A DNA stretch of 64,000 bases from Calditrichales bacterium. Lineage in GTDB: Bacteria; Calditrichota; Calditrichia; Calditrichales; J004. A model generated the notes under the pieces. It had not been told where the DNA came from and did not search any database. It was given only the letters and a program-made list of their open reading frames with translations. Positions within the stretch are counted from its first letter, which is position 1. Each line of letters begins with the position of its first letter. Both the position numbers and the translations under genes were made by a program. The DNA is taken from NCBI GenBank assembly GCA_965267575.1, contig OZ254086.1:1376001-1440000 (forward strand), given 5' to 3'. This document shows positions 2,768 through 46,101 of this stretch, piece by piece.

Positions 2768-3613
2768 TTAAAAACGAAATGAACCGCCAATGGCAAAAGT
2801 AAAAGTCCTCGTCAGACCGTCCACATTTACTTTACGCTCCAGCGTGGCAAAAGCCGTTTTGACATACGCGCTCAAGTTTTGCTCCAAAGGATAACTGGCA
2901 ACAAATCCAATATTAACCTGCAGCGGATCGCTGTCCGCGACCGGCTCGTCAACACCGTTTGTGCGCACAAGAGATTCTTCAAGCCGCTTTATGGCCAATA
3001 CTTCGGCTGTTACGACAAATGGCTCGGCGTTAAACGAATAAGCGCCCTTAACGAATACATCATCACCACGCTTTAGGGGTTGTACATTATCGTTAAAAAC
3101 CCGCTCAACATATTGGTACCCAGCGGCAACAAGCCATTGGGAGTGGCGGTAATTCACGCCAAATAAAATATCACTTGTGCCAAGCCCCGTTTGGTACGAC
3201 ATGGGCAGGGCAGCGTCTGCGCGGGGATCACCCGTGGCGAGCTTGGAACCGATTTGTAAAGCCAGGCTGCTCTCATGCACTTTGTAAACAACCTGTTCCC
3301 AGGCGGCAATAATGTCACCGAAACCGGAAACGCTGCCCAGGGGACCGTCCTGCAACCTGAAAACCGGCGCGAAAATCAACAGGTAGCCGTTTTCTAAAAT
3401 CTTGAACCGGCCGTTAACCCGAATGGAATGATAATTGATCTCATCGTCCATACCGCTATAAGCATAGGAATACTCCAGACCAAGCTCGTTATGCAGGGCA
3501 AGAGCGCTGTCGGCGTTGCCCATGCCCAGATTGCATACACCCGCGTCTGAGCACTGTGCGGAAAGATTCGTGGCGCCGGTAAAAATTAAAAAGGCCAGAA
3601 AAAGCGTTCTCAT
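2768..3613 (-). CDS. Putative outer-membrane beta-barrel transporter (MetA-pathway/phenol-degradation-like)
   Basis: Signal peptide, mature N-terminus QCSDAGVC, G-x-GD and QTGLGTSD motifs, alternating hydrophobic strands and a C-terminal Phe. Confidence 0.6.
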   Translation of the reverse strand: MRTLFLAFLIFTGATNLSAQCSDAGVCNLGMGNADSALALHNELGLEYSYAYSGMDDEINYHSIRVNGRFKILENGYLLIFAPVFRLQDGPLGSVSGFGDIIAAWEQVVYKVHESSLALQIGSKLATGDPRADAALPMSYQTGLGTSDILFGVNYRHSQWLVAAGYQYVERVFNDNVQPLKRGDDVFVKGAYSFNAEPFVVTAEVLAIKRLEESLVRTNGVDEPVADSDPLQVNIGFVASYPLEQNLSAYVKTAFATLERKVNVDGLTRTFTFAIGGSFRF

Positions 3614-10108: not shown

Positions 10109-11344
10109 TTAGCCAAAAAGTTTTATTGAAAGCATGTGCTTAAGCTCTTTGGCAGAATCAAAATCCGGCTTGATGTTTAAAGCCTGGTCCACATCATGAA
10201 CGGCGCTAACCCAATCATTCAGGTCGTAGTAAGTCAGCGCGCGCATGTAAAAACATTCATATTGCGATTTATTAATGCTCAATGATTGCTCGAAATCGTC
10301 CAGCGCCTGTTTGTATTTGCCACGCATACGGCAGGTAATGGCGCGGTTATTATAAGCACGGAAATTCTTGTCGTCATAATCCAGGGCCCTGCTGAAATCG
10401 TGCTCGGCCTTTTTGTATTCGGATAAAACAAAATAGGCCATACCACGGTGATTGTAGATTACCGAGCGTACGGGATCTTGCGTTTTCATCCGCAAAATTC
10501 GGGAATAGATCGCAATGGCTTTTTTAAAATTACCGTTACTGTGATACTGTAATCCTTCCAGAAGCAGCTTTTCCAGTGTGCTCTGCGGCTGTGTCGAGGA
10601 AGCCAGATCGAAGGTGCTGTTGCTCAGGTCCGGCTTTTCAACATTATCCAGAAGCGAAATACCCTTGGATATGTCTACCTTGTCCTCAACCGTCTTGCGC
10701 AGTTTAATGCCCTGAAGCTGGGTTTCGCGCTGGTAATCCCGTATTTCCTGGAAGATGACATCAGAAAGAGTGAGGATGGCGTTCAGCGAAGCCAGTTTTC
10801 TTTTTATGGGCTCATTAAGTAGCGAGAAGTTAGCTTTGTAAATCAACTCATGCTCAACCTCGGCCCAGGCATCCTGCAGGATTGTGCGCAACTGAACCTC
10901 GAACACATTGGCCGAAAAGGGCAGCAATTCATCCAGCGTATCGTCAGGAAGGCGAATAAGCATGTGGATAGAATCATAGCCGAATTCACGGAAAGAGTGT
11001 TTCAATCCCTTGCGCTCAATCTCCTGAATTTTAAAATGCTGCGATAAGATATTTTCAACACGGTCCAGGTCCTCCAGGAAGGGACAGATAATGCGCAGGC
11101 CCAGAACATCCGTCAGCTCCGGCCGCGAAGTCATATTTTTGAGACGCAGGATTTTTTCAAAATAGCTGGAGAAGCTTTTAACGCGGTATTTTACGTCGAT
11201 GTCGAGCCCGTTTTGTTCAAGCAGGTTGATGATGCGCTTTTGCAGCTTACGGATAATGACTTCATAGTCCCGGACAATTTTTTCGTAAGCCTGCTCGACT
11301 TTTTTCCGGTTGGGTATGTTTACGCGATTCTTTTTTCTGCTCAT
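10109..11344 (-). CDS. RelA/SpoT-type (p)ppGpp synthetase domain fused to C-terminal TPRs
   Basis: RVKS, DVLGLRI, GYDSIH and EVQLRT-x3-DAWAEVEH synthetase motifs; TPR repeats (YNHRGMAY, AYNNRA). Start moved to MSRKK at 11344. Confidence 0.88.
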   Translation of the reverse strand: MSRKKNRVNIPNRKKVEQAYEKIVRDYEVIIRKLQKRIINLLEQNGLDIDVKYRVKSFSSYFEKILRLKNMTSRPELTDVLGLRIICPFLEDLDRVENILSQHFKIQEIERKGLKHSFREFGYDSIHMLIRLPDDTLDELLPFSANVFEVQLRTILQDAWAEVEHELIYKANFSLLNEPIKRKLASLNAILTLSDVIFQEIRDYQRETQLQGIKLRKTVEDKVDISKGISLLDNVEKPDLSNSTFDLASSTQPQSTLEKLLLEGLQYHSNGNFKKAIAIYSRILRMKTQDPVRSVIYNHRGMAYFVLSEYKKAEHDFSRALDYDDKNFRAYNNRAITCRMRGKYKQALDDFEQSLSINKSQYECFYMRALTYYDLNDWVSAVHDVDQALNIKPDFDSAKELKHMLSIKLFG

Positions 11345-11404
11345 CTCATTCCCGTATTGCGTTGATACATAATATAAAAATAATTCCGGCACATTAAATG
11401 ATTA

Positions 11405-12121
11405 TTAGTCGCTGTATGACCTTAAACGCGACAGCAATTCAGCCGGAATTTCCGCCGAAAAACGGTAGCGCCCCTGATGTAGCAAGTCATTCATTTTTAT
11501 CAGCTCTTCATACCCCGGTCGTCCCACGTCAAAAGGCACTTTTTTTAAACGCGGCTCCTTTTTGCCAAAAGGCGGTTCCGGTTCGGCGGCAAACAGTTCG
11601 CCCCATAAAACAGGCGTGCAGCTGAACAAGACCCCGTGCCACCAGTTGGCTTCCCACCATTCGTTAAGACATTCGTTTATATCCTGAAAAAAGGCGCGGC
11701 TTTCGGCCAGGCGGATGCGTGAACCGGCCCGGGATTTGCCCTTGGTTTTTAAATAGCTGATCTGGGCCTTGCCCTGTTTTTTGCGCACCATATAGCGCCG
11801 GATGGATTTGTGCCGCTCACAAACGCCGTTTTCAAAGGTGCCCACGGCGGCGTAACCGGCCTGAATCAGAAACATCAGGTATGGCGGCGATTGCTCCTGC
11901 CAGGTATCAATATATTTGGTAGATTCCTGCCTGTTTTCGGAAAGGGCCCAAAAAACGGGAACATGAAGCCAGCCCAGGGCGTCTCCCTTTTCGCTGTACA
12001 CATCGATGCGGTTGCGTGATCTATCGATATCGGCAGGAAGATCTGAATTGAGAATAAAACGAAGCAGATTTACAACGGAACTGTAATTTAAGGTTCCTGA
12101 TATATTTTGCTCTTGATCCAT
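11405..12121 (-). CDS. Bacterial VLRF1 (Vms1/ANKZF1-like) release-factor homologue
   Basis: HKSIRRYMVRKKQGKAQ...KSRAGSRIRLAE resembles the Vms1 HK-x2-(H/R)RY-x-VR-x-KQG-x2-Q and S-x-AG-x2-(L/I)R motifs. Confidence 0.8.
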   Translation of the reverse strand: MDQEQNISGTLNYSSVVNLLRFILNSDLPADIDRSRNRIDVYSEKGDALGWLHVPVFWALSENRQESTKYIDTWQEQSPPYLMFLIQAGYAAVGTFENGVCERHKSIRRYMVRKKQGKAQISYLKTKGKSRAGSRIRLAESRAFFQDINECLNEWWEANWWHGVLFSCTPVLWGELFAAEPEPPFGKKEPRLKKVPFDVGRPGYEELIKMNDLLHQGRYRFSAEIPAELLSRLRSYSD

Positions 12122-25080: not shown

Positions 25081-25782
25081 ATGAAAGCCATTCTTGCCCT
25101 GAAAGCAATCGAAAAACGCTTTGAGAGCGCCGGGCGCTCATTACAGGTTCTCAACGACATCTCTTTTGAGATTGATCCCAAAACAAGCTGCGCCATTGTC
25201 GGCCCATCCGGCAGCGGCAAAACCACGCTGCTGGGAATTTGTGCAGGCTTGGAACGTCCCAGTTCGGGAAAAATTTCCCTGGCCGGTATGGAAATCAACA
25301 ACAAAAGCGAGGATGAGCTGGCCGCTCTGCGCAACCAGAAGGTCGGCTTTGTTTTCCAGAACTTCCAGCTGATGCCCACGTTGACCGCACTTGAAAATGT
25401 GATGGTACCGGCGGAGTTGCTGCAGCGCGATAATCCCCGTGAACGCGCCGTTGAGCTTTTGGGCCGCGTCGGGCTGGAGGACCGCCTCGATCATTATCCC
25501 GTTCAGCTCTCCGGCGGTGAGCAGCAGCGTGTGGCTTTAGCCCGCGCCTTTATCAACCAACCGGAAATACTTTTTGCCGATGAGCCCACCGGTAACCTCG
25601 ATGATGAAACCAGCCACACCGTGGAAGAGCTCCTTTTTGATTTGAACAGCACACAGGGCACAACCCTGATCCTTGTAACCCACGACCTGGAGCTGGCCCG
25701 GCGCTGTGACCGCGTGATCCGGCTGAAGGGTGGCCACATCGAAGAAGACACCCGTTCCGTGGAGCAGGAAAACTATGTCTGA
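25081..25782 (+). CDS. ybbA: ABC transporter ATP-binding protein (YbbA-like)
   Basis: GPSGSGKT, LSGGEQQR, FADEPTGNLD and LVTHD. Confidence 0.88.
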   Translation: MKAILALKAIEKRFESAGRSLQVLNDISFEIDPKTSCAIVGPSGSGKTTLLGICAGLERPSSGKISLAGMEINNKSEDELAALRNQKVGFVFQNFQLMPTLTALENVMVPAELLQRDNPRERAVELLGRVGLEDRLDHYPVQLSGGEQQRVALARAFINQPEILFADEPTGNLDDETSHTVEELLFDLNSTQGTTLILVTHDLELARRCDRVIRLKGGHIEEDTRSVEQENYV

Positions 25783-28303
25783 TAAAATATCCTGGTCCTG
25801 GGCGGCACGCATGGCCTGGCGCGACAGTCGCAGCCGCCGCGGACGCTTTTTGCTTTTTGTCTCCTCCATCATGGTGGGCATTGCCGCGCTGGTTGCCATC
25901 GATTCTTTTCGCATTAACCTGGACGCCGCCGTAAATGAAGAGGCCAAAACCCTGCTCGGCGCCGACCTGGTGCTGCGTTCCAACCGCGCTTTTAATTATA
26001 ATGTAAACACCTTTTTGGACACCCTCTCCAACCCGGTCGTCCGTGAGATCAGCTTCAGCACGATGATCTACTTCCCGAAAACCGGGAACAGCCGCCTGGG
26101 ACGTCTGCGCGCCATCGAAGAGGGGTTTCCCTTTTACGGCTCGGTGAAAACCAATCCCGTGGGCGTGTATGAAAAGCTGGGCCAAAGCAATCATGTCTTG
26201 ATTGATGAAACGATGCTGGTGCAATACGACGCGCAACCGGGCGACACCGTGCGCATCGGCTACAGTACCTTTGAAATTGGCGGAGCTGTAAAGGCGGTCT
26301 CCGGCGAAACCGCTGCCGGTTCTACCATCGCGCCAATGGTGTTTTTACCCATGAGCGAGGTAGACAAAACCGGGCTGCTGCAATTCGGCTCCATCGCCAT
26401 TTACCGCGCCTACATCAAGTCGACCCCCGGACAGGACATAGATGCCTTTGTGGCGGCCAACGAAAATTTCTTTAAGGAAAACAGCGTCCGTTACCGCACC
26501 GTTGAATCACGCAAGCGCCAGTTGGGCCGGGTGATTGACAACCTCAACGCCTTTCTCAGCCTGATCGGTTTTTTTGCTCTGTTGCTTGGCGGCATCGGCG
26601 TGGCCAGCGCGGTGAATGTGCACGTGCGCCAGAAGCTGGACAGCGTAGCGATATTGCGTTCACTGGGAGGGGGCGCCTGGCAGGTCTTTGCCATCTACCT
26701 GATTCAAACGCTTTCTTTTGGATTTATCGGCGCGCTACTCGGTGTGGCCTTTGGCGTGGCCGTTCAGTTTGGCCTGCCGCTCATTTTCCAGAACTTTTTG
26801 CCGGTAACGGTGAACGTTTTTGTCGTGCCGTCGGCCTTGCTGCAGGGCCTGTTTGCCGGATTTTTTATGACCAGCCTGTTTACATTACTGCCGCTGGTTT
26901 CCCTGCGTCGCGTGCCGCCGTTGCGCAGTCTGCGTGCTTCGTACGAGGGCGAAAAAAACCGTGACCCGCTGCAATACCTTGTTCTTGTTTTACTGGGATT
27001 GTTTTTTCTGGCCTTTGTGGCCCTGCAGGTGAACAACTGGCAAACGGGCATCGTCTTTAGCCTGGCGTTACTTGTTGCCATCATTTTGTTCGGCTACAGC
27101 GCCCGTTTTGTAGTGCGACTGATCCGGCGCTTTTTCCCCAAGAGCTGGCCTTATGCCTGGCGCCAGGGTCTGGCCAACCTTTACCGTCCCAACAATCAAA
27201 GCTCTATTTTGATTTTATCACTGGGACTGGGTGCTTTCCTGATCAGTACGATGTTTTTGACACAGGACGCGCTGTTGCGCCAGGTCTCTTTCAGCGACGA
27301 AGGCGAGCGCCCCAACTTGGTGCTGTTCGATGTGCAAAGTGACCAGATTCAGGCCGTGGAAGATACACTACAATCTCGCGGATTACCGCTGCTACAGCAG
27401 GCGCCGATTGTGACCATGCGTTTGCAGGAAGTGCGTGATGAAGACGTGGTAGAGATGCGCAAAGACACCACCGACCGCTATGAAAAATGGGTTCTGAACA
27501 ACGAGCTGCGTGTGACCTACCGTGACTACCTGCAAGAGTCAGAAGAGCTGGTGGAAGGCAGTTTTCCGCGCACGGGCAGCGATACCATCTTCGTCTCCGT
27601 GGCCGATGGCCTGGTGGACGCGCTGGACCTGAAACTGGGCGATCGCATTGTCTACGATGTGCAGGGTGTACCCCTGGAAACCTACGTGGGCAGCATCCGC
27701 CGCGTAAACTGGCAGCAGTTCTCGCCCAACTTTCTCACCGTGTTTCCGCCGGGAGTGCTGGAAGCAGCGCCACAGTTTCACGTGGTTGTGACCCGGGTTT
27801 CTCCGCGTGAAAAAGCCGCCCAATTTCAACGGGCCATGGTGCAGGCTTTTCCCAATGTCTCTATCATAGACCTGGCGCTGGTGCTGCAAACCGTGGAAAA
27901 CGTGCTGGACCAGATCAGTTTTGTTATCCGTTTTATGGCCTCGTTTACAATCCTTACCGGCGTCATTGTTCTGATTGGCGCGTTGACAATAAGTCGTTTT
28001 CAGCGATTGACGGAGAGTGTCCTGCTGCGTACGCTGGGCGCCTCGAAGCAGATAGTGCGTCGCATTATGACGCTGGAGTATGTCTTTTTGGGAAGCCTGG
28101 CCGCGCTGCTGGGTATTTTAATGGCGCTGGCCACAAGCGCGCTGTTTACGGTGACGGTGTTTGATGTATTGTTCCAGCCGCCCTGGCTGGAGTTGGGTGG
28201 TTTGTTCGCGGCCCTTTGTCTGCTGACCGTCGCCATCGGCTGGCTCAACAGCCGCGGGATATTTGACCGCTCGCCGCTGGAAGTGCTAAGGCAGGAGGCG
28301 TAG
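25775..28303 (+). CDS. ybbP: ABC transporter permease (YbbP/FtsX-MacB type)
   Basis: AWRDSR, LLGADL, EEGFPFYG and PNLVLFDVQ; two FtsX-like TM blocks; start overlaps the ybbA stop. Confidence 0.88.
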   Translation: MSDKISWSWAARMAWRDSRSRRGRFLLFVSSIMVGIAALVAIDSFRINLDAAVNEEAKTLLGADLVLRSNRAFNYNVNTFLDTLSNPVVREISFSTMIYFPKTGNSRLGRLRAIEEGFPFYGSVKTNPVGVYEKLGQSNHVLIDETMLVQYDAQPGDTVRIGYSTFEIGGAVKAVSGETAAGSTIAPMVFLPMSEVDKTGLLQFGSIAIYRAYIKSTPGQDIDAFVAANENFFKENSVRYRTVESRKRQLGRVIDNLNAFLSLIGFFALLLGGIGVASAVNVHVRQKLDSVAILRSLGGGAWQVFAIYLIQTLSFGFIGALLGVAFGVAVQFGLPLIFQNFLPVTVNVFVVPSALLQGLFAGFFMTSLFTLLPLVSLRRVPPLRSLRASYEGEKNRDPLQYLVLVLLGLFFLAFVALQVNNWQTGIVFSLALLVAIILFGYSARFVVRLIRRFFPKSWPYAWRQGLANLYRPNNQSSILILSLGLGAFLISTMFLTQDALLRQVSFSDEGERPNLVLFDVQSDQIQAVEDTLQSRGLPLLQQAPIVTMRLQEVRDEDVVEMRKDTTDRYEKWVLNNELRVTYRDYLQESEELVEGSFPRTGSDTIFVSVADGLVDALDLKLGDRIVYDVQGVPLETYVGSIRRVNWQQFSPNFLTVFPPGVLEAAPQFHVVVTRVSPREKAAQFQRAMVQAFPNVSIIDLALVLQTVENVLDQISFVIRFMASFTILTGVIVLIGALTISRFQRLTESVLLRTLGASKQIVRRIMTLEYVFLGSLAALLGILMALATSALFTVTVFDVLFQPPWLELGGLFAALCLLTVAIGWLNSRGIFDRSPLEVLRQEA

Positions 28304-28503
28304 TCCGGACTGCGATTCGTGTGATGGAATGATTTTGTGATTAGAATAAGGCCCAATCAGAGTCCGTCATGTAATCATCAAAATCATAGTTTATGACAAT
28401 TACCCCTGTCTGAACTATGATTCGTATGATGGTGTGATTTTGTGATTAGAAGATTTACAAAATCATAGTCCATCACATAATCCAAAAAATCAAGGTTCAG
28501 ACA
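28302..28503. repeat. Hairpin-repeat doublet A+B (28302-28398 and 28407-28503)
   Basis: Each unit has inverted ends of the TGTCTGAACTATGATT...AATCATAGTTCAGACA type (unit A is more degenerate), internal TGATGG or CCATCA/CCGTCA and TGTGATT/AATCA arms; 8-nt linker ATTACCCC. Confidence 0.9.
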
Positions 28504-28888
28504 ATTTTCTTTGCACCCGCTTAAACTGCAAACTCCTGCTGCCGAAATTAATCAATAGTCCTACTTCCATATTATACGCTTCCAGGTAGTTAATCGCTTG
28601 CGCCAGGTGTACATGTTCCAGTTGAATAATAGCTTTTAGCTCAACCATTATCTTGTCATCAACAAAAAAATCAACCCGTCGTGTGCCGATGTTTTGATCA
28701 TCATAATAAATGGGCATTTCCATCTCACGCTCAAAAGAAAGCCCCTGCTTGGTCATCTCAATCGCAAGGGCGCGCTGATAGATGACCTCCTGAAATCCAT
28801 TGCCCAACGTTGAATGCACTTTCATCGCGCAGCCAATGATTCTGGATGTTAAGTCGGAGTATTTGTATTCCGGGTTAATGTTACTCAT
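28490..28888 (-). CDS. GxxExxY protein (PD-(D/E)xK nuclease superfamily)
   Basis: IIGCAMKVHSTLGNGFQEVIYQRAL (GxxExxY), RVDFFVDDKIMVELKA and AQAINYL-x7-GLLINFG; start set at MSNINPEYKY. Confidence 0.92.
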   Translation of the reverse strand: MSNINPEYKYSDLTSRIIGCAMKVHSTLGNGFQEVIYQRALAIEMTKQGLSFEREMEMPIYYDDQNIGTRRVDFFVDDKIMVELKAIIQLEHVHLAQAINYLEAYNMEVGLLINFGSRSLQFKRVQRKLSEP

Positions 28889-28920
28889 GTGTCTAAACTT
28901 TGATTGTTGGTTGAAGCATT

Positions 28921-29110
28921 TGTCTGAACTATGATTCGTGTGATGAAATGATTTTGTGATTAGAAGATTTCTCCAATCACAGTCCGTCACAAAATCACAG
29001 TTTAGACAATCTTCCTGTCTGACCATGATTCCTGTGATGGTGTGATTTTATGATTAGAAGATTTCCTAATCACAGTCCATCACGTAATCAAATAAATCAT
29101 AGTTCAGACT
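28921..29110. repeat. Hairpin-repeat doublet A'+B' (28921-29008 and 29016-29110)
   Basis: Same unit family as 28302-28503 in direct orientation; 7-nt linker ATCTTCC. Confidence 0.9.
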
Positions 29111-30224
29111 ACTTCAAATTCTCAGGATTCAGCCCCTTCAAATCATCCACCACAAACAGACCGCCTTTGCGGATCAGTGTGTCATCAAAGTAGATTTCGC
29201 CGCCGCCATACTCCGCTGTCTGGATGCAGACCATGTCCCAGTGGATGTTGCTGCGGTTGCCGTTGTCGGCATCCTCGTAGGCCTGGCCCGGTGTGAAGTG
29301 GAAAGAGCCGGCGATCTTCTCGTCAAACAAAATATCCAGCATCGGTTTGGTGATCCAGGGGTTAAAACCGATGGCAAATTCACCGATGTAGCGCGAACCG
29401 TCGTCGGTATCTAAAATTTCGTTGAGGCGTGTGCTGTTGCTGGCGCTGGCTTCAATAATCTTGCCATCCTTAAATGTGAGCTTGATGTTGCTGAACACCG
29501 TCCCCTGGTAGATCGTATCGGCACTGTAACGTAGGGTGCCATTTACCGAATCACGCACGGGCGCTGTAAACACCTCGCCATCGGGAATGTTGTGGCTGCC
29601 GGCGCAGGGCACCACGGGGATATCCTTGATGCTGAAACGCAGGTCGGTGCCGGGACCCTTGATGTAGACTTTGTCTGTCTTTTGCATGCGTTCCTTCAGT
29701 TTTTTCGCGGCAGTGGCCATCTTCTTGTAATCAAGCGTACAAACGTCGAAATAAAACTGCTCGAAAGCCTCGCTGCTTTTCTGCGCCTGCTGGGCCATTG
29801 AAGGCGTCGGCCAGCGCAGTACGCACCACTTGGTTTTGGGCACGCGGATATTGAAATGAACCGGCTTCAGCCAATGCTCCTCGTACAAGCGCATCTTGTC
29901 GGAAGGCACATCGGACATCTCCGAGATGTTGTAGCTGCCGCGCAAACCAAGATAGGCCTGCACCTGCTTCATGCGATAAGCCTCCACATCGGCCGTAGCC
30001 AGCATCGTTTTTTCATCGCCGTCACGCAGCAGTTCGCGCATCAGCGTGTTGTTTTTGATTGTCAACAGGGGAATGCCGCCGGCTTGCCTTACCCGCCGTA
30101 TCAGCGCCACTATGAATTCCTTTGGAATGTCAATGGCCTCGATGAGAATTTTTTCCCCTTTTTGCAAATTTGTAGAATGGCCGATTAATACATTTGCAAG
30201 TTTGTCAAAGCGTGGGTCATGCAT
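29109..30224 (-). CDS. Aminopeptidase, peptidase M29 (AmpS/AmpT-like)
   Basis: NIPDGEVFTAP, GEFAIG-x-N, LFDEKI-x2-SFH-x2-PG-x-AY and HWD. Confidence 0.9.
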   Translation of the reverse strand: MHDPRFDKLANVLIGHSTNLQKGEKILIEAIDIPKEFIVALIRRVRQAGGIPLLTIKNNTLMRELLRDGDEKTMLATADVEAYRMKQVQAYLGLRGSYNISEMSDVPSDKMRLYEEHWLKPVHFNIRVPKTKWCVLRWPTPSMAQQAQKSSEAFEQFYFDVCTLDYKKMATAAKKLKERMQKTDKVYIKGPGTDLRFSIKDIPVVPCAGSHNIPDGEVFTAPVRDSVNGTLRYSADTIYQGTVFSNIKLTFKDGKIIEASASNSTRLNEILDTDDGSRYIGEFAIGFNPWITKPMLDILFDEKIAGSFHFTPGQAYEDADNGNRSNIHWDMVCIQTAEYGGGEIYFDDTLIRKGGLFVVDDLKGLNPENLK

Positions 30225-37207: not shown

Positions 37208-38611
37208 TTACGAGACAGACGCCTTTTTTATTTTTAACTGTTCAGCCTTTTTTGCCAGCTCCGCGCGGCCCGCCTTGATAGATCCGGCGCTTTCTTCCGG
37301 CAACTCAAAAAAATAGTCCGGCACTTTAAAGCCGGCCAAATGCTTTTTCAGATAAGATCGTATTTCTTCGAACTTTATGCTTTTTCCCTTTACAAAAGCC
37401 GCCGGCCTGCGACCAAATTCTTTATCGGAAACCGCCACCACAATTGCCCGGTCAACCGCGGGATGCTTCAAAAGGATTCGCTCAATTTCTTCCGGCTGAA
37501 TGTTTTCCCCGCCGCTGATAAACATATTGTCCTTGCGTCCGCTAATTTTCAGTTTTCCGTTTCTGTCCATTTCACCCAAATCACCGCTCAAAAACCAGCC
37601 GCTTCGATCAAACGGTTTTTCCAGGGCGCCGTTTTCAAGATAGCCCAAAAAGCGCGTTTCACCGGCCAGGGCAACTTCACCATCTTTTAAGACCTTAGCC
37701 TTTCTGTAGGGCAATATGGTAGCCGCTTGGGGATTGTCCGGATTGGCTATGGCAACCGTGCTGGCCATCTCGGTCAAACCGTAGCCGGGATAGAGCATGT
37801 TCAGGCCCAATTCGCGGGCGGCGTGCAGCAGGTTTTGCGCTATGGCGCTGCCGCCAAGCAAAATGCGCGATTGTTTCAGTTGCCCGGTGACATTCCCTGC
37901 GGACAACAGGCGTTGAAGTTGCGTGGCCACCAGCGAGATGTGCGTAGGCTGGTGGTCAATGACAGCCTCTTCCAATGACGCACTATCTTTAACCGGGATG
38001 ACGCTTGCCCCGGCAACCATTGCCCGTGTTAGAATTGCCAGTCCGCTTACATGGTGCATTGGCAGGCATAACAGCCAGCGGCTGGGCGTGCCGAAGTCAA
38101 GTGTTTGGTTAATACCCAGCGCACTGAAGTAGTGGTTGCCAATGGAATGAAGCACGTACTTGGGGTTCCCGCCGCTGCCCGATGTCAGTACAATCGTGGC
38201 CGGGCTTTTCAGTTTAAGTGGAGGAGCAGCGAGTGGCACGGCTGACCCGGCTAATAAATCTTCTATGTAGAGGCGCTTATGATCGCTGCCGAAGGCAGTG
38301 CTTTTGGAGGTTGCTAAAACAGCGTCGCAGTCACTAAGATGTTTGGACAGTGTTGCAGGAGGTAATTTGGCATTAAGCGGAAAGACGGTGTGCCCCTCAT
38401 ACCAGGAGGCCACAAGCAAAGCGGCGAAATCGGAAGCAGGCAGACCGGCGCAGGCGATAACAGTCGGTTTTGTAAGCCTTTCCCGCAAAGATCCGCGAAG
38501 TATATCTATGCGCTCCAATAGATGCCCATAATCTTGCGCTACATTGCCGTGGCAAAATGGCGATGCCGCATTGGCGACCATTGAGCCGTAAAGGTCCCAG
38601 GTACGTTTCAT
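37208..38611 (-). CDS. menE: o-Succinylbenzoate-CoA ligase
   Basis: TSGSGGNPK, YGLTEMAS, SGDLG and GRKDNMFISGGENIQPEEIE; located in the men operon. Confidence 0.9.
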   Translation of the reverse strand: MKRTWDLYGSMVANAASPFCHGNVAQDYGHLLERIDILRGSLRERLTKPTVIACAGLPASDFAALLVASWYEGHTVFPLNAKLPPATLSKHLSDCDAVLATSKSTAFGSDHKRLYIEDLLAGSAVPLAAPPLKLKSPATIVLTSGSGGNPKYVLHSIGNHYFSALGINQTLDFGTPSRWLLCLPMHHVSGLAILTRAMVAGASVIPVKDSASLEEAVIDHQPTHISLVATQLQRLLSAGNVTGQLKQSRILLGGSAIAQNLLHAARELGLNMLYPGYGLTEMASTVAIANPDNPQAATILPYRKAKVLKDGEVALAGETRFLGYLENGALEKPFDRSGWFLSGDLGEMDRNGKLKISGRKDNMFISGGENIQPEEIERILLKHPAVDRAIVVAVSDKEFGRRPAAFVKGKSIKFEEIRSYLKKHLAGFKVPDYFFELPEESAGSIKAGRAELAKKAEQLKIKKASVS

Positions 38612-39648
38612 GGCACCTCTTGCAACACGCTGCGGTCCGGCTCGATTTGCTGCATGGCTGTTATTGAGTCGGCCGTTGGGGTATCCAGCTTTGCCAGATC
38701 GTTTTCAAAGAAGCGGGAGGTATCAAGTCCGTGCGCCGTTTTAGCGGCAAGAGCAGCGGCCAGGTGCGCCAGGAGATTTAATCCGACGGCGCTTTCAAAA
38801 ACGCTGCTGATGGTGCAGTCGATACCCGCGTTTTGTGCCGCGCGCGCCCAGGCCAGTGTTTTAAAGATGCCATGCAGCGAAGGCTTCAGAACCAAAGCCC
38901 GGCATCCACCGGGAAATTGCACGGCGTCCGGCCGCAAGTCACGCAGCGACTCATCGAGCGCGAAGGGCAGACCGGTTTGCGTGTAAAAGCTTTCCAGGTC
39001 TGAAGGTTTTTTCAGCGGCTCCTCGATGTATTCAATGGGAGCTTGCAGCTTGTCAGTAAAGAGGACTGCTTCTTCAAGCGACCAGCTTCGATTGGCATCC
39101 AGGCGTATGGTTGTGCCCTTCCTCAGCATCCGGGCAATGCGGTTTACAAAGGAGGCTTCTTTCACCGGACTGTGCCGGCCGACTTTTATTTTAATGCTGT
39201 GAAAATTATCAACGATCGCCTTTAAGCTATTTTCATCATCTGACATGGAGACAAGCGCATTGAGCCGGACGGATGAAGCGGAGCCGGGATTAAGCGCCGT
39301 ATGCAGGGTTAGGTTCTGATTTATGGCAAAAATTTGCAGCCACAAACCCTGCAGGGCAAAGCGCAAACTGGGTGGCCAGGCGGCAGTTGTTAGCATATTG
39401 GGCTCGCGTTCAGGACTGTTCAGGTTTGTCAACAGGAAACCGGCTTCATGCCGCAGAGTCAGGACCTGTTCCACCGTTTCGCGGTGCAGTCCCGGCAACG
39501 GCGCGGCCTCACTCCAGAGGGACAGACCCGAGTCGGTTACGCCTTCAACTACAATACCATGCCGCCGTGTAAGTCGTTGACCCATCATTAGCAGCGGGGC
39601 TTTCAAACGGCGATTGTATTGATACCAGCGCAGAGATTTAAAATACAT
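38608..39648 (-). CDS. menC: o-Succinylbenzoate synthase
   Basis: EAAPLPG, KIKVG, RLDANRSW, YIEEP, ALDESL and GLDT. Confidence 0.9.
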   Translation of the reverse strand: MYFKSLRWYQYNRRLKAPLLMMGQRLTRRHGIVVEGVTDSGLSLWSEAAPLPGLHRETVEQVLTLRHEAGFLLTNLNSPEREPNMLTTAAWPPSLRFALQGLWLQIFAINQNLTLHTALNPGSASSVRLNALVSMSDDENSLKAIVDNFHSIKIKVGRHSPVKEASFVNRIARMLRKGTTIRLDANRSWSLEEAVLFTDKLQAPIEYIEEPLKKPSDLESFYTQTGLPFALDESLRDLRPDAVQFPGGCRALVLKPSLHGIFKTLAWARAAQNAGIDCTISSVFESAVGLNLLAHLAAALAAKTAHGLDTSRFFENDLAKLDTPTADSITAMQQIEPDRSVLQEVP

Positions 39649-39652
39649 CGGA

Positions 39653-40528
39653 TCAGGCGATCCAGCCTATGGCAAAAATAAGGCTGTAAAGGAATAGAAT
39701 TTTACCCGTGTTGGCCAAAACCTTATTCAGAGGTGCCCCGGCGCTGCCGTCCAGCACCATGCGAATGCCGGGCACGGCGGGAAAAAGCACCAGGAGAGTC
39801 AGAATAGACAAATAGTTTTCGTGCGTCATGTAGATCAGGATCAGTGGAACGAGGCAGGCAGCCAGCATACTCGCAATGTATTCGAAGCGGGCAAAGGCCA
39901 CGCCGAAGCGCACGGCCAGCGTCCGTTTGCCGGCCAGACGATCGGTTTTAATATCACGCAAATTGTTGACTGTGAGGATGGCCATGGAAATAAAGCCCGG
40001 CGCCAGCCCCGCCACCAGCACCACCGCTGTCATATCCAGCGTTTGTACATAATAACTGCCACCTACGGCAACAGGCCCGAAAAAGACCAGCACAAAAATA
40101 TCACCCAACCCGTTATAACCCAGCGGATAGGGACCGCCGGTATAAAGAATACCAAACAGGATCGAGAGCAATCCAATCAACAGGATGGGCCAGCCGCCTC
40201 TGAAAATGAGATATAGCCCGATAATAAAAGCGAGAGTGAAGGTGAGAATAAAGGCACGCTTCATTACAGCAGGTGCAATAAGCCCGGTCTGCGTCGCCCG
40301 ACGGGGGCCAAGACGCTCGTGGTTGTCCGCGCCCTTTTTAAAATCAAAATAGTCGTTGGCGTAGTTGGTGCCGATTTGTATCAGCAGTGCGCCGAGCAGG
40401 GCCGCAAGCGCCGCGGGAAGATGAAAGCCGCCATCGTGAAAGGCCATGGCGCTGCCCATGATAACGGGCGCGGCCGCAGCCGGCAGTGTTTTGGGGCGGC
40501 TGGCTTCAATCCAGATACTGAGATTCAT
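39653..40528 (-). CDS. menA: 1,4-dihydroxy-2-naphthoate polyprenyltransferase
   Basis: RPKTL, NYANDYFD, YTGGP and NNLRDI-x-TD-x2-AGKRTLAV. Confidence 0.93.
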   Translation of the reverse strand: MNLSIWIEASRPKTLPAAAAPVIMGSAMAFHDGGFHLPAALAALLGALLIQIGTNYANDYFDFKKGADNHERLGPRRATQTGLIAPAVMKRAFILTFTLAFIIGLYLIFRGGWPILLIGLLSILFGILYTGGPYPLGYNGLGDIFVLVFFGPVAVGGSYYVQTLDMTAVVLVAGLAPGFISMAILTVNNLRDIKTDRLAGKRTLAVRFGVAFARFEYIASMLAACLVPLILIYMTHENYLSILTLLVLFPAVPGIRMVLDGSAGAPLNKVLANTGKILFLYSLIFAIGWIA

Positions 40529-40543
40529 AACCGATAATCTTGA

Positions 40544-41368
40544 TTAAGGCCTGCGTGTAAATTTGGCAAAGTCCGGTTTGCGCTTTTCCAGGAATGCATT
40601 CTTACCTTCCTGACCTTCTTCGCTCATATAGAACAGCATGGTGGCGGCGCCGGCCAGTTCCTGCAGACCGGCTTGTCCGTCACAGTCGGCATTAAGGGCC
40701 GCCTTCAGGCAACGGATGGCTGTGGGTGAGTTGGCCAGGATATCTTTGCACCATTCGATTGTTTCTTCTTCCAGTTTTGCATAAGGCACAACCGTATTCA
40801 CAAGGCCCATATCCAGCGCCTGCTGCGCGTCGTACTGGCGGCAGAGAAACCAGATCTCGCGTGCCTTTTTCTGACCCACGATACGCGCCATATAGCTGGC
40901 GCCGTAGCCGCCGTCGAAGGAGCCTACCTTGGGACCGGTTTGTCCGAAGCGCGCGTTATCCGCGGCAATGGTCAGATCGCACATCAGGTGCAGAACGTGC
41001 CCGCCCCCGATGGCGTATCCCGCTACCATGGCGATGACCGGTTTGGGACAGGTGCGGATCTGGCGCTGAAAGTCGAGCACGTTCAGCCGATGCACGCCGT
41101 CATCACCGACATAACCGGCTTCGCCCCTTACACGCTGGTCACCACCGGAGCAAAAGGCCTTTTCGCCTTCACCCGTCAATATGATAACGCCGATGCTGCT
41201 GTCGTCACGGGCGTCAGCCAGTGCCTGCATCATTTCCTGCACGGTAAGCGGACGAAAAGCGTTGCGTACTTCCGGCCTGTTTATGGTGATTTTGGCGATG
41301 CCAGACGGATCGCTCGATTTTTCATATTTAATGTCTTCAAAATTTAAAGCGCTTGACCATTGCGTCAT
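40544..41368 (-). CDS. menB: 1,4-dihydroxy-2-naphthoyl-CoA synthase
   Basis: [30 protein letters not shown] and [15 protein letters not shown]. Confidence 0.97.
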
Positions 41369-41390
41369 TTTTAACCCCTATCTCGTTTTA

Positions 41391-42176
41391 TTAGCGAATT
41401 GACAAATTTAAGAAGCTTACAAGATGTTCTGCAAATAGCTGTGGTTGCATAAAGTGTGTGTTGTGGCTGCAGTTTTTCATGGCAATGCTTTTAAACGACA
41501 TATTTAGCTGCAGCATTTCATGTGTGATTTGCCGGTATCGTACATCATCCTCACCGTGGATTAACAGCGTTGGCTTTTTAAATGCCGGCAAAAGGACCCT
41601 GTAATTTGTCTGAACACCCGGCGAGTACGCCACAATCGCCTGCGCTATGTTTTCTTTGTCCTGTGCTAGCCGGCTTTGCAGAAGCTGCCGGAAGTGTGGC
41701 GCCGATTTAATGCCCATAAACAGATCAGCGTCATACCAGGCGTTCAGAAACAGAGCATAGTCTGCGCGGATGGCCGCGGCGCGGCTTTTATCCTGTTCCA
41801 GGCGCGCCTGTTTGTGTGGTCCTTCGGGCATGCCCGGAGATGTTGACTCCAGGATAATCGCGCTGACATAGGCCGGATAATGCAGCGCAAAATCAAGTGC
41901 AACGCGCCCTCCAAGCGAATAACCGCACAGCGCAATATGGGGAAGATCGTAGTTGTCTAAAATGTCCAGGATTAGCGAGCGGGCGGCATCAAAGCCCGGT
42001 TTGGTTTTGCCGGCGGAAGCATGTCCAGGCAGATCGGCGGCTATCAAAAAATACTGATTCCGGGCGTAGCCGGCCACTTCAGACCAGTCAACGGCGGAGC
42101 CCATAAAGCCATGCAGAAGCAGAACCGCCGGTTTTTCCGGGTTGCCCCAGGTCAGGCCATATTTTGTTTTAACCAT
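41391..42176 (-). CDS. menH: SHCHC synthase (alpha/beta hydrolase)
   Basis: LHGFMG, DLPGH, GYSLGGR and HNTH; lies between menD and menB. Confidence 0.88.
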   Translation of the reverse strand: MVKTKYGLTWGNPEKPAVLLLHGFMGSAVDWSEVAGYARNQYFLIAADLPGHASAGKTKPGFDAARSLILDILDNYDLPHIALCGYSLGGRVALDFALHYPAYVSAIILESTSPGMPEGPHKQARLEQDKSRAAAIRADYALFLNAWYDADLFMGIKSAPHFRQLLQSRLAQDKENIAQAIVAYSPGVQTNYRVLLPAFKKPTLLIHGEDDVRYRQITHEMLQLNMSFKSIAMKNCSHNTHFMQPQLFAEHLVSFLNLSIR

Positions 42177-43891
42177 TGGGCGATCTCTTCACTCAGCTTG
42201 CGTTGAAATGTTTTGTGCTGCTCCAGGTTAGCGACGCGTTCGGACTCTATTTCGATAAGGTGATGGCCGCTCTTATTTTGCAAAAGTGCGGCTAACTCTT
42301 TTAGCGAGGCCGGACGCGCGTATTGCAGGCCGAACATATTAGCCGCGTGCTCAAAATGGAGGTCATGTGGCGTCCCAAAAAACGGCTCAAAAACGGGTGC
42401 GTGTTTTGCAACCGGCAGAAAATGAAAAATGCCCCCGCCGTGATTGTTGATGACGACTATCGTGGCCTGCTGCTCCAGCGCTTTTACAAGTTGCAGACTG
42501 CTTAAATCGTGCAGCAGCGCCAGATCACCCATCAGCAGCATAAGCGGTTTGCCTGTACCCCGCGCAAATCCGGCCGCGCTGGCCACCGTACCATCGATGC
42601 CGCTGGCGCCGCGGTTGGCCGCAACAACGGGCGCCGGACTAACAGGCTGTGCGTACATATCCAAATCACGTACGGGCATGCTGGAGGCCATAAACAACGC
42701 CTTGCCCGCGCAAAAGCGGCTAAGGCACAGCGCAGCAGAGGCCTCGTTCAAGTCATCATCCAGTCCGGTAGCAATTTTCACGGCCATATGATCGTTTAGC
42801 TGCTTCATCCAGCGCCAGTCCCACGCCGGTTTTGCCTCTAATCCGGAGAGCGCCATACAAAAGGCTGCAATATCGGAGGTAACGCGCCAGGTTACTTTGT
42901 GTAATGGATCCACCCGCTTTTCACGTGGTGAGATATGGATGTATTGTTCAATATGCTTGCCCAGCCATTGCATTACTCTTTTCGACACGAACGGCCCTCC
43001 GAAATGCAAAACGGTTTTCCCTTTCAGCCGCTTGGCAAAGTCGTCATTCAGCAATAGCTGATCAAAATGGGCGATTAGATTGGAGCATGTGCCGTCCAGC
43101 CTTATCGGACAGGTAATGTCCGCTATCACCGGCAGGTTGAAATCTGACGCCAGTTTTTTTATAGCCTGCGCATCGGCTTGAGTTACGCGTCCGCATAAAA
43201 TAACACTGTTGCCCAGATCAATCCCGGCAAATTGATTGCCGGAAAATGAAACAAAAGGGTTCCCGCTGCTGATTTTGGTAAACGGCCGGTTGCCTTTGCT
43301 CCAGCCCTCCAATGGAGTCAGGTAATCCGGGTCGATGGGCTGCGGGTCGGGTGCCAGTGGTTCGCGGAACATGCAATTAAGGTGAACCGGCCCTGCATTC
43401 TGCCCAACGGACTTTTGCAGAGCATAATTGATTGTCGAAAGGACAAAAGGCGCCTCTATTTTTTCATCCGGGCAGGGCATTTCAAAAAACCAGCGTACGT
43501 ATCCGCCAAAAAGTTTTGTTTGATCAATAGTTTGGTTGGCGGCGGAATCTTTCAACTCCGGCGGACGGTCGGCGCTTAAGATAAGCAAGGGCAGGTTTTC
43601 CGAGGATGCCTCAATTACCGCCGGATAATAGTTGGCCGCCGCTGTCCCCGATGTGCACATCAAAACGGCCGGTTGACCGCTGGCCCTGGCGTGGCCCAGT
43701 GCGAAGAAAGCCGCGGCGCGCTCATCAAAAATAATGTGTGTATTGGCCCTGGGATTTTCAGCGGCAGCAAAGGTGAGCGGCGTACTGCGCGAACCGGGCG
43801 AAATGACAAAAGTGATGATGCCCTGCCGCGTCAGCTCCTCAACGATCAGGTCGCTCCACAGTTGGTTTAGATTTGCGGCAGCCTTCAACAT
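42152..43891 (-). CDS. menD: SEPHCHC synthase
   Basis: SPGSRSTPL, DERAAAFFALG, TSGTA, NRGASGIDG, GDL and NNHGGGIF. Confidence 0.96.
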   Translation of the reverse strand: MLKAAANLNQLWSDLIVEELTRQGIITFVISPGSRSTPLTFAAAENPRANTHIIFDERAAAFFALGHARASGQPAVLMCTSGTAAANYYPAVIEASSENLPLLILSADRPPELKDSAANQTIDQTKLFGGYVRWFFEMPCPDEKIEAPFVLSTINYALQKSVGQNAGPVHLNCMFREPLAPDPQPIDPDYLTPLEGWSKGNRPFTKISSGNPFVSFSGNQFAGIDLGNSVILCGRVTQADAQAIKKLASDFNLPVIADITCPIRLDGTCSNLIAHFDQLLLNDDFAKRLKGKTVLHFGGPFVSKRVMQWLGKHIEQYIHISPREKRVDPLHKVTWRVTSDIAAFCMALSGLEAKPAWDWRWMKQLNDHMAVKIATGLDDDLNEASAALCLSRFCAGKALFMASSMPVRDLDMYAQPVSPAPVVAANRGASGIDGTVASAAGFARGTGKPLMLLMGDLALLHDLSSLQLVKALEQQATIVVINNHGGGIFHFLPVAKHAPVFEPFFGTPHDLHFEHAANMFGLQYARPASLKELAALLQNKSGHHLIEIESERVANLEQHKTFQRKLSEEIAQWLKQNMA

Positions 43892-43906
43892 GGAGATGTC
43901 TTTCTG

Positions 43907-45337
43907 TTAGCGCGAGACAGAATGGGGTGTGTCCGCGGGAAGAATAGTTTCCTCGTCCTCAGGGGAGAGGGCACGCAGGAAGCTGGCGATTTTGCTTTCA
44001 ATCTCTTCCCACTCTTTTTCCGCATCGGAGCCTTGCACAATACCGGCTCCGGAGTAAAGGTAAAGATCTTTATGGTCAATCAATCCAGAGCGGATGGCTA
44101 CAGCAAATTCGGCCATATTCTGGCCTACCCAACCGACAGGTCCCGCATACCAGCCGCGGTCAAAAGGCTCAATCTTTTCAATCTCCTGCTGCGACGCTTC
44201 CGTTGGCACGCCGCCCACCGCCGGTGTGGGATGCAGACTGTCCAGAATATCCGGATCGGCCACTTCCGTGCGCAGTTCACCTTTAAACTGCAGTCGCAGG
44301 TGTTGCAATCGCGAAAGCTTTAAAACGTTCAGGCCGCCGTTTTGCTTACGGCTGCTGCAAATGCCATCGAGCGCCTGGCGGATGCTGTCCACCACATAGC
44401 GGTGTTCGCGCACGTCCTTTTCACTGTTCAGGAGATCCTGCTCCAGCTGTAAATCTTCTTCGGGGTTATGTCCGCGGCGGCGTGTGCCGGCAACGGCCTC
44501 TGTGTGGATCTGTCGTCCGCCTCGTTTGTACAGCTGCTCCGGTGTGCCGCCGATAAAGGCGATATTATGCTGCGGCTGGAAACAAAAATAGTAGGCACGG
44601 TGATTGTTAAGACGCAGCTTCCACAATAAGTCAATAACCGGGATATCCTGCTCAAAGCGAAACAGCGACTTACGCGCCAGGACGATCTTATCCAGTTTTT
44701 TCTGAGAAATAGCCTGCAAAGCCTCATCGATCTTGCGGTGCCAGACATTGCGTTCGGGCAAATCCTTACGCTCGTTCAGATCCGGCAGGCGTTTTATCTG
44801 CGGCGGCGCTTCAAACACGAGTTGATGCAATTGTTCGAGAACACGCTCCTGTGTCTGCTCGCGCGGCTCACTGTTCATCAGCGGAATGTTGGCGGCCAGA
44901 ACGGTCTCACTGCCTTCACGAAACACTTCGAACAGCGGCACTATAAAACGAAAGGATGTAAACGGCTGCCAGTGGAATCCCGAGCTGTGGCTGCGGCTGA
45001 AGCGCATGCCGCCGTAATAGCGTATCCCGGGTGAGGAATGTTTCAGATATTCGTTTAATCTGCTGAAAATAGCCTTGTTGTCTGCCGTAAGCGATCCGCA
45101 GACTACATCCGATTCGCCGACACCTGCCATTTCAAAGCGGCTTTCACGATCGCGCCAATAGGTTTTGGCGGCATTCTTCTGCGCGGCCAGCCAAAGCAGG
45201 GCGTCACATTTATTAAGGGCTATCTCTACGCGGATGATGCGTTTTGGTCCGCCCGGGGGCTCCTGTTCAATGGCCCGGTTAATGGCGTTTTCCAAATCGT
45301 TTTTTGCTGCGAAATATACAGAGCTGCACTGTGTCAT
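43907..45337 (-). CDS. menF: Isochorismate synthase
   Basis: KIVLAR, GTPE, EAVAGT, KD-x2-EH, LHPTPAVGG, RGWYAG and GAGIV. ATG at 45337 overlaps the menG stop (TAATG). Confidence 0.9.
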   Translation of the reverse strand: MTQCSSVYFAAKNDLENAINRAIEQEPPGGPKRIIRVEIALNKCDALLWLAAQKNAAKTYWRDRESRFEMAGVGESDVVCGSLTADNKAIFSRLNEYLKHSSPGIRYYGGMRFSRSHSSGFHWQPFTSFRFIVPLFEVFREGSETVLAANIPLMNSEPREQTQERVLEQLHQLVFEAPPQIKRLPDLNERKDLPERNVWHRKIDEALQAISQKKLDKIVLARKSLFRFEQDIPVIDLLWKLRLNNHRAYYFCFQPQHNIAFIGGTPEQLYKRGGRQIHTEAVAGTRRRGHNPEEDLQLEQDLLNSEKDVREHRYVVDSIRQALDGICSSRKQNGGLNVLKLSRLQHLRLQFKGELRTEVADPDILDSLHPTPAVGGVPTEASQQEIEKIEPFDRGWYAGPVGWVGQNMAEFAVAIRSGLIDHKDLYLYSGAGIVQGSDAEKEWEEIESKIASFLRALSPEDEETILPADTPHSVSR

Positions 45338-46101
45338 TACGATGTTGTTTTGTCTCCGCTGTAAATCGTTGCAATTCCAAAAGTAAGCGGCTTTTGTTTT
45401 ACATTCCTGTATCCGTTTTCCTCCATCAGACGGCAAAAAGCGTCGCCGTACGGGAAGCTTTCAACAGTTTTATTGAGATACCTGTAGGCGTAACTGTCTC
45501 CGGAAAGTGACCCGCCGATGATCGGCAAAATATGGCGAAAATAAAAAAGATACAGCTTTTTCATCAAGCTGTTTTTTGGCAGGGAGAATTCAAGCACCAG
45601 CAGGCGACCGCCATGCTTCAGAACGCGTTTCATGTTTTGCAGGGAGCGACTCACGTCGGTTACGTTGCGTATGCCAAAAGCGATAGTCACCACATCAAAG
45701 GCCGCTTCATCCAGCGCAATTTCCGTGGCGTCACCGGTTTGCAACTTTAAGCGATTGTCCAGCTGCAGACGTTGCAGCTTTTCGCGGCCCACGCTGAGCA
45801 TTTTTTCAGACATATCGATGCCCACGCCTTCAATCCGGGCGGAGGCATGCTTTTGCAGGGAGATCAGTACATCAGCGGTTCCGGTAGCTACATCGAGTAC
45901 GCGCAGCTTTTGGCCGGCGGGCAGAAGGCGCGCCAGTTTTTTGCGCCAGGCGACATCCTGCCGCAGAGAAAGCATGCGGTTTAACAGGTCATAACGGTGG
46001 GCAATGCGGTCAAACATGAGCCACACTTTTTGCCTGGAAATATCCTGTTGTTCTAAGCCGGTCTTGCTTTGAGGCATGGTATCCATGTTTGTGAAATTCA
46101 T
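45337..46101 (-). CDS. menG: Demethylmenaquinone methyltransferase
   Basis: MFDRIAHRYDLLN, LDVATGTAD, AFGIRNV, RVLK-x-GG, LEFS and AYRYL. Confidence 0.93.
   Translation of the reverse strand: MNFTNMDTMPQSKTGLEQQDISRQKVWLMFDRIAHRYDLLNRMLSLRQDVAWRKKLARLLPAGQKLRVLDVATGTADVLISLQKHASARIEGVGIDMSEKMLSVGREKLQRLQLDNRLKLQTGDATEIALDEAAFDVVTIAFGIRNVTDVSRSLQNMKRVLKHGGRLLVLEFSLPKNSLMKKLYLFYFRHILPIIGGSLSGDSYAYRYLNKTVESFPYGDAFCRLMEENGYRNVKQKPLTFGIATIYSGDKTTS

Follow-up and report, generated by a model that had tools for sequence, protein, structure and literature searches.

A locus in the genome of a Calditrichales bacterium (assembly GCA_965267575.1) can be read as a small selfish cassette, in which a promoter-poor gene for a GxxExxY nuclease is embedded in its own array of palindromic repeats; we consider this reading about as apt to be right as wrong. 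The stretch of DNA that was analysed, here called the window, comprises 64,000 nucleotides of contig OZ254086.1 (positions 1,376,001 to 1,440,000 of the forward strand), and positions at the locus are counted from its first letter. The locus itself is an AT-rich island of 809 bp (28302..29110, assigned to neither strand) that occupies the entire gap between the stop codons of two convergent host genes, one for a ybbP-like permease and one for an M29 peptidase. Its composition is foreign: GC amounts to 38.9%, while the 2-kb flanks have 55.5% and 52.0%. An original prediction, made from the letters of the window alone, had proposed that the gene and the hairpins around it belong together, and the proposal is upheld from several directions: by footprints of the repeat units beside homologues on other contigs, by flanking repeats at sibling GxxExxY loci, by the presence or absence of a cassette between two Sphingomonas genomes, and by the dispersal of a cassette-associated hairpin in Gemmatirosa.

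The nuclease gene and its palindromic units

The island carries the four imperfect palindromes of 88-97 nt that had been predicted: U1 (28302..28398), U2 (28407..28503), U3 (28921..29008) and U4 (29016..29110). Their mean column identity in a four-way alignment is 83%, and U3 owes to its right arm a length 9 nt below that of the other units. The first 2 nt of U1 are shared with the stop codon (TAG, 28301-28303) of the ybbP-like gene, and the last 2 nt of U4 with that of the minus-strand M29 peptidase gene (29109-29111). TGATT sub-repeats make up the left arms and AATCA sub-repeats the right arms, at a spacing of 8-9 nt with some gaps of 17-18 nt. When up to three mismatches are allowed, the terminus TGTCTGAACTATGATT has six matches in the window, every one of them at this locus, as compared with a mean of 0.26 and a maximum of two in 100 shuffles; a loop-side 23-mer of the units likewise has three matches against none expected. 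Folding, which the original prediction had put forward as a check, sets U2, U3 and U4 well beyond shuffles both as RNA on either strand (z scores from -3.9 to -6.7) and as DNA (-3.0 to -4.6), the individual values being -5.8 and -5.4 (RNA) and -3.7 (DNA) for U2, -5.3 and -6.2 (RNA) and -4.6 (DNA) for U3, and -3.9 and -6.7 (RNA) and -3.0 (DNA) for U4. U1, whose identity to the remaining units is 75-84%, is a decayed unit with weak folding (z -1.4 as RNA, -0.9 as DNA).

The layout of two doublets, two units on each side of the gene, stands as predicted, except that a fifth arm had been missed. This truncated left arm, which we call U2.5 (28890..28920), begins 1 nt from the ATG of the nuclease gene and agrees with the left arm of U3 in 21 of 27 aligned columns. 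Its first 16 nt (28890-28905) and the right terminus of U2 (28488-28503) are complementary at 14 of 16 positions and so form an inverted-repeat bracket immediately around the gene. The further suggestion that the doublets are direct copies of one another (A-B/A'-B', that is, U1 with U3 and U2 with U4) gains modest support from four informative columns, as against one for the pairing U1+U4 and none for U1+U2, but overall identities do not separate the pairs (U2-U3 85%, U2-U4 85%, U1-U3 84%). TA dinucleotides stand at the outer edges of the array only, the palindrome elsewhere running on into the flank, and no clear target-site duplication is visible at 28302-29110. Could the array have arisen merely by tandem duplication, at this locus alone, of a terminator hairpin from the intergenic gap, with no relation to the gene? 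All window copies of the unit family do lie at this one locus, and U1 is decaying; however, the same termini appear as footprints beside homologues on other contigs, and the layout of hairpin, gene and hairpin recurs twice in Gemmatirosa with unrelated sequences, and we regard such a duplication as highly improbable.

The gene between the doublets encodes a minimal PD-(D/E)xK nuclease of 132 aa, and its predicted identity as a GxxExxY gene is secured by matches above the curated cut-offs to PF13366 (PDDEXK_3; E 6e-41, 139.9 bits against a cut-off of 22), which is its sole Pfam match, and to TIGR04256 (“GxxExxY”; E 1e-42, 145.2 bits against a cut-off of 35). What had to be amended in the earlier description is its orientation and its end: the gene lies on the minus strand (28490..28888), and its last four codons (LSEP) and stop codon are the right terminus of U2. 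The motif residues G-F-Q-E-V-I-Y and D...E-L-K are present in the protein; E35, Y38, D74 and K86 are at least 90% conserved among 58 diverse sequences, and all nine sibling proteins have E or D as the middle acidic residue. An AlphaFold2 model built from the same number of diverse sequences (58) has the form of a minimal PD-(D/E)xK domain at a mean predicted local distance difference test score (pLDDT) of 91.9; a model from 18 close sequences reached a pLDDT of 47 and was discarded. In a Foldseek comparison with the PDB the top match is Cas4 SSO0001 (E 1e-4, template modelling score 0.57), followed by 3ijm, a Spirosoma restriction-endonuclease-like protein, lambda exonuclease and Hjc, and at rank 44 comes I-Bth0305I, a homing endonuclease of PD-(D/E)xK fold; a PDB sequence search returned no solved structure for the 132-aa protein. 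Given the conserved E35, D74 and K86 and a middle residue that is always acidic, the gene is expected to encode an active nuclease.

The protein belongs to a large family, with 17,270 representative clusters (50% identity) at E≤1e-3. PADLOC gives a single match (Cas4b, E 0.045), PHROGs one family of unknown function, and tblastn against phages no match. Two GxxExxY-like stretches occur in 21 of the best 150 representatives, proteins of about 250-570 aa (P0124, P0143, P0146, P0147 and P0165 are examples); these tandem fusions would be in keeping with a dimer as the working unit. The subfamily of the window protein is unusually conserved, the best 120 matches being 74-100% identical to it, and the records listed among these include Calditrichaceae and Dysgonamonadaceae at 75-86% identity; on this distribution the close subfamily looks horizontally spread. 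The GC content of the gene is 42.6%. In the literature, with most subscription journals outside the coverage of our search, we found no functional study of GxxExxY, PDDEXK_3, PF13366 or TIGR04256 proteins and no paper on the repeats of the family.

The original prediction had also called the locus attC-cassette-like. In an integron-type cassette, the units would be attC sites recombined by an IntI integrase. A small promoter-poor gene beside imperfect palindromes of attC-like length does invite that comparison. However, none of the 59 ORFs (open reading frames) of the window that were scanned for domains encodes an integrase (nor does any encode a transposase or a further PF13366 protein). The attC core has the consensus GTTRRRY / RYYYAAC, from which the unit ends GTTCAGA / TCTGAAC depart. 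Moreover, unit doublets stand on both sides of the gene instead of one site per cassette, and the sibling cassettes sit singly within ordinary operons. The attC reading does not survive these observations, and we give it next to no credence.

Flanking repeats and junctions at other GxxExxY loci

Most of the GxxExxY genes that could be inspected at the DNA level are flanked by repeats of their own. A tblastn search placed GxxExxY genes at 10 places in eight plasmid or chromid records, and nine of the 10 places were read as DNA. Flanking repeats were scored without gaps, as inverted (IR) or direct (DR) repeats, over 200 nt outward and 60 nt inward of each gene, in a set made up of the window and the eight best places (n = 9), with the 55 other ORFs of the window as controls. 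No control scored above 11, and seven of the nine GxxExxY loci exceed the control maximum: those of the window (IR 13, DR 43), Bernardetia (IR 16), Fusobacteria (DR 25), Prevotella (DR 21), B. finegoldii (IR 21), Gemmatirosa gene 1 (IR 32, DR 26) and Sphingomonas (IR 19). The tenth locus, Gemmatirosa gene 2, has hairpin arms of 58-71 nt on either side, with a motif different from that of gene 1. In Sphingomonas and at Gemmatirosa gene 2 the ORF extends into the downstream repeat, as it does in the window. The genes are also consistently placed with respect to their neighbours, in that the neighbour upstream has the orientation of the GxxExxY gene at all eight loci where neighbours are known, and both neighbours are co-oriented at all six annotated plasmid loci (for example fabD-X-fabG and radA-X-FAD). 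The radA junction was also compared between B. finegoldii and Phocaeicola as a possible empty site and was uninformative; a different gene, of 215 aa, stands there in place of the cassette.

Across phyla, the class of repeat motif partly follows the protein subfamily and not the host. Arms of the CAGAG type are found in B. finegoldii, Bernardetia and Gemmatirosa, whose proteins are 43-55% mutually identical, and arms of the GATT type in the window and in Persicobacter, whose proteins are 59% identical. Persicobacter sp. JZB09 (record L024, 1605-3032) is the closest relative readable as DNA. It has GATT-periodic arms at 1605-1677 and 2231-2310, with a 143-aa ORF of unknown family between them, and AATC-periodic arms at 2409-2448, 2953-2992 and 2993-3032, which end in ...AATCAAGGCT and resemble the ...AATCAAGGTTCAGACA of the window. 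The flanking repeats of the Fusobacteria locus (record L026, 2296-2948) and the Treponema locus (record L027, 2443-2903) have the motif AATCCGTGT in common, and the two proteins are 40% identical.

For the immediate subfamily of the window gene, the junctions between gene and unit can be followed through protein records. The unit termini translate to LSEL or LSEP followed by a stop in the frame of the gene, and to NHSSD or NQGSD in another frame, and 14 of the 119 listed non-self homologues carry such footprints in peptide form: a C-terminal [LM]SE[LP] in eight, NHSSD directly ahead of the gene start in three, and read-through into NQGSD in three. One of these homologues, P0098, is extended at its N terminus by a stretch that can be aligned to a complete unit in translation, together with the truncated arm; its BLASTP identity is 64% over 168 aligned residues, the extension included. 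In homologues of 76-92% identity the gene-unit junctions are kept to the nucleotide frame. In 150 more distant representatives no footprints were found, and a search with a 46-aa peptide derived from the repeat gave no candidates. Indirectly, then, the peptides suggest that the same gene-unit junctions exist on other contigs within the subfamily.

Insertion and dispersal of the repeats, and competing readings

The sibling loci also provide a case of insertion and a case of dispersal. Sphingomonas parapaucimobilis has, in the space from fabD to fabG, a cassette of 437 bp with the inverted termini TTCACGCG... and ...CGCGTGAA as its bounds. In S. paeninsulae about 32 nt separate the fabD stop from the fabG start, and the cassette is absent. 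The comparison shows a presence/absence (insertion) polymorphism between congeners, with inverted-repeat ends marking the insertion. In Gemmatirosa, the hairpin of about 85 nt that stands on either side of gene 1 occupies 40 or more places in one replicon and 39 or more in a second. In the 196 kb sampled it occupies 11 places, two beside the gene and nine solo, and at three of the nine solo places one hairpin is nested in another (records L033-L036, NZ_CP007129.1, 910001-1106233; for example 975500-975650, 988238-988404 and 1083849-1084003). The nested elements have near-perfect arms of the form (GCAGAGGAC)n and the termini TTGAACC/GGTTCAA, one element lying within the loop of another. The hairpin family of Gemmatirosa gene 2 has two further solo places. 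All this fits repeats that can exist as gene-less, sometimes dispersed, copies.

Some additional features of the Gemmatirosa loci should be recorded. The inverted repeat around the B. finegoldii GxxExxY gene is similar to the inner arms of the nested hairpins. Gene 1 (record L030, 1493-1868) reads in two frames, as two tblastn pieces, and is either a frameshifted pseudogene or the product of a sequencing error; the self-complementarity of the hairpins that flank it is 100%. The cassette of gene 2 (record L036, 29813-35669) is located between two convergent permease genes of the ADOP/FtsX type, the same broad family as the left neighbour in the window, which may reflect coincidence or a common site preference.

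[quoted passage not shown] Nine of the 11 Gemmatirosa places are solo, the hairpins insert into each other's loops, and TA dinucleotides stand at the outer ends of the window array. The stacking of the window units in a convergent intergenic gap also recalls the arrays of REPs and bacterial interspersed mosaic elements (BIMEs) described in PMC2817692. Against this, two Gemmatirosa genes each have their own hairpin family on either side, the arms and the gene are jointly absent from the Sphingomonas empty site, and the junctions of the window subfamily hold their nucleotide frame among homologues of 76-92% identity. Moreover, if 11 places are taken per 196 kb, a single gene would by chance have hairpins within 150 nt to its left and to its right with a probability of about 7e-5. 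Hairpins of independent origin are, in our estimation, an improbable explanation.

The main rival to the selfish-cassette reading is a role of the stems at the RNA level, as in an intervening sequence (IVS): the stems of a read-through transcript would be cut by RNase III, the cassette mRNA would be released or insulated and polar effects thereby limited, and the nuclease would target something else. The architecture does match that of an ORF-bearing IVS of 23S rRNA, such as those encoding S23p, for which PMC4990558 gives a length of 428-444 nt, a 28-bp terminal stem and an ORF of about 120 aa, along with a GC content below that of the host, excision by RNase III and a character regarded as selfish. 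In the present loci, too, complementary termini (arms of 16-32 nt, 387-503 nt apart) surround an ORF of about 120-130 aa, and the upstream neighbour is co-oriented in eight of eight cases; in the window GC is below that of the host (38.9% as against 52-56%), and the sense strand of the units folds well as RNA. However, folding is about equal on the two strands, and G-T pairs are spread across both, hence there is no strand-specific signal; compensatory change is seen in none of 31 predicted pairs; the dispersed solo and nested hairpins of Gemmatirosa need spread at the DNA level; and hosts from different phyla have the short motif CAGAGGAC in common, a recurrence that base pairing by itself would not demand. 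The cassette also differs from the known IVS in its position between protein-coding genes (Rfam finds no rRNA in the window), in an ORF that encodes a nuclease in place of a four-helix-bundle protein, and in ends that are each a full palindrome, doubled. On balance an exclusively RNA-level element seems unlikely to us, though not negligibly so, and an RNA-level role of the stems may coexist with one at the DNA level.

The selfish-cassette reading has its own difficulties, which must be set against the evidence above. Two of the nine scored loci, Treponema and Persicobacter, do not exceed the controls; Treponema equals the control maximum, and Persicobacter has gapped GATT/AATC arms only, which as queries matched nothing but their own locus. 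The link between motif and protein is imperfect, in that the Prevotella arms are of the GATT type and the Prevotella protein is only 30% identical to that of the window. The footprints are peptide tails and not DNA, and some of the [LM]SE[LP] tails could be inherited protein ends. As for the unit family of the window itself, its dispersal and mobility are putative. The other 63 kb of the window hold no copy, which at the 5% level rules out only more than about 225 evenly dispersed copies, and blastn of the island against the plasmid records gave no match. In a genome collection that does not include the source genome, the invariant unit core gave 23 single matches in unrelated taxa; a hidden Markov model of the unit aligned these no further than the search pattern, and they were treated as chance matches. 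Finally, we found in the literature no biochemical datum tying any GxxExxY protein to hairpins, and a lone PD-(D/E)xK nuclease is not known to perform transposition.

Genomic setting, proposed mechanism and known elements

The neighbourhood of the cassette is unexceptional. On the left is the gene of the ybbP-like ABC permease (25730-28303, plus strand); this longest ORF, with a GTG start, overlaps the preceding ABC ATPase gene (25081-25782) by 53 nt, and the true start is probably further downstream. On the right is the M29 aminopeptidase gene (29109-30224, minus strand). The island lies downstream of the M29 gene, which is co-oriented with the nuclease gene, and thus the nuclease gene is probably transcribed by read-through from M29. 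Otherwise the window consists of ordinary chromosomal DNA. Rfam reports no family in it at gathering scores (four sub-threshold matches of eukaryote type have E values up to 1), and a tRNA scan of the window found none. At 10109-12121 a gene for a RelA/SpoT-domain protein with TPR repeats adjoins a same-strand gene for bVLRF1 (Bacteroidetes VLRF1 release factor), a domain whose name taken by itself would point to Bacteroidota, and at 37208-45436 menaquinone-type genes follow one another along a single strand (AMP-binding, MenC-like, UbiA, enoyl-CoA hydratase, hydrolase, thiamine pyrophosphate enzyme and chorismate-binding).

How might such a cassette work? In the mechanism that seems to us the likeliest, gene and repeats would be inherited and moved together, and the palindromic units would be either the ends of the element or gene-less derivatives of it, as MITEs and REPINs (REP doublets forming hairpins) are of their parents. 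The nuclease would recognise the periodic TGATT/AATCA arms in the form of extruded hairpins or cruciforms, or of single-stranded DNA, and would cut at the arms; host repair or replication would then copy units, and occasionally the gene, into new sites. Both the action of the nuclease on the hairpins and this route of mobility are inferred.

The original prediction drew a parallel with REPINs and RAYTs (REP-associated tyrosine transposases), and as a likeness it holds in part. As there, a short gene for an enzyme is flanked by copies of a hairpin repeat (in the window two units per side plus the truncated arm), the repeat of the Gemmatirosa sibling is dispersed and mostly solo, and each GxxExxY gene has its own type of repeat, just as each RAYT has its own type of REPIN. 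However, in place of an HUH/Y1 transposase the cassette encodes a PD-(D/E)xK nuclease of about 130 aa and is therefore not a member of that class. Moreover, its arms are 35-45 nt long and built of 8-11 nt sub-repeats, as compared with the 20-40 bp given for REPs in PMC3733652, and the dispersal known from the Gemmatirosa sibling is putative for the unit family of the window. The close GxxExxY subfamily also looks horizontally spread, in contrast to REPIN-RAYT systems, described as mostly vertically inherited in bioRxiv 10.1101/2022.05.22.493013.

Other known elements share single features with the cassette. Free-standing homing endonuclease genes are likewise small nuclease genes placed between conserved host genes (here, for example, fabD and fabG) and present or absent between relatives, as in the Sphingomonas sibling; some, such as I-Bth0305I, use the PD-(D/E)xK fold, but they are not characteristically framed by inverted or palindromic repeats of their own. 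With MITEs the units have in common that they are short elements with terminal inverted repeats, being palindromes of 88-97 nt. As in MITEs and foldback elements, short palindromic units share arms with the repeats that bracket the gene, and insertions are nested in the Gemmatirosa sibling. Foldback elements are known for arms composed of short tandem sub-repeats, and so are the arms here; the difference is that no transposase of a known class is present and that the window gene lies between units and not inside one. BIMEs share the setting, as regularly spaced arrays of palindromes at the 3′ ends of convergent genes (PMC2817692), but they enclose no gene and their units are much shorter.

The locus points to an undescribed kind of selfish DNA element, with a fair chance that it affords the first view of a new element class. 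A more ambitious generalisation, which we advance tentatively and think rather less likely to be true than false, is that GxxExxY proteins may mobilise an unrecognised, cross-phylum group of hairpin (foldback) elements with periodic arms. Such a group would be a PD-(D/E)xK counterpart of the RAYT/REPIN system, each nuclease subfamily would co-evolve with its own motif, and the window would hold one element with a gene and four gene-less units. If GxxExxY proteins are indeed the cargo or the engine of hairpin-flanked selfish cassettes, a common “hypothetical” gene would gain a role, and the insertion of GxxExxY genes inside conserved operons such as fabD-fabG would be explained. The same result would supply a candidate enzyme for those palindromic repeat families that are dispersed in phyla for which RAYTs have not been invoked. 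As a reagent, too, a nuclease with specificity for a periodic hairpin that is long and programmable-looking would attract interest.

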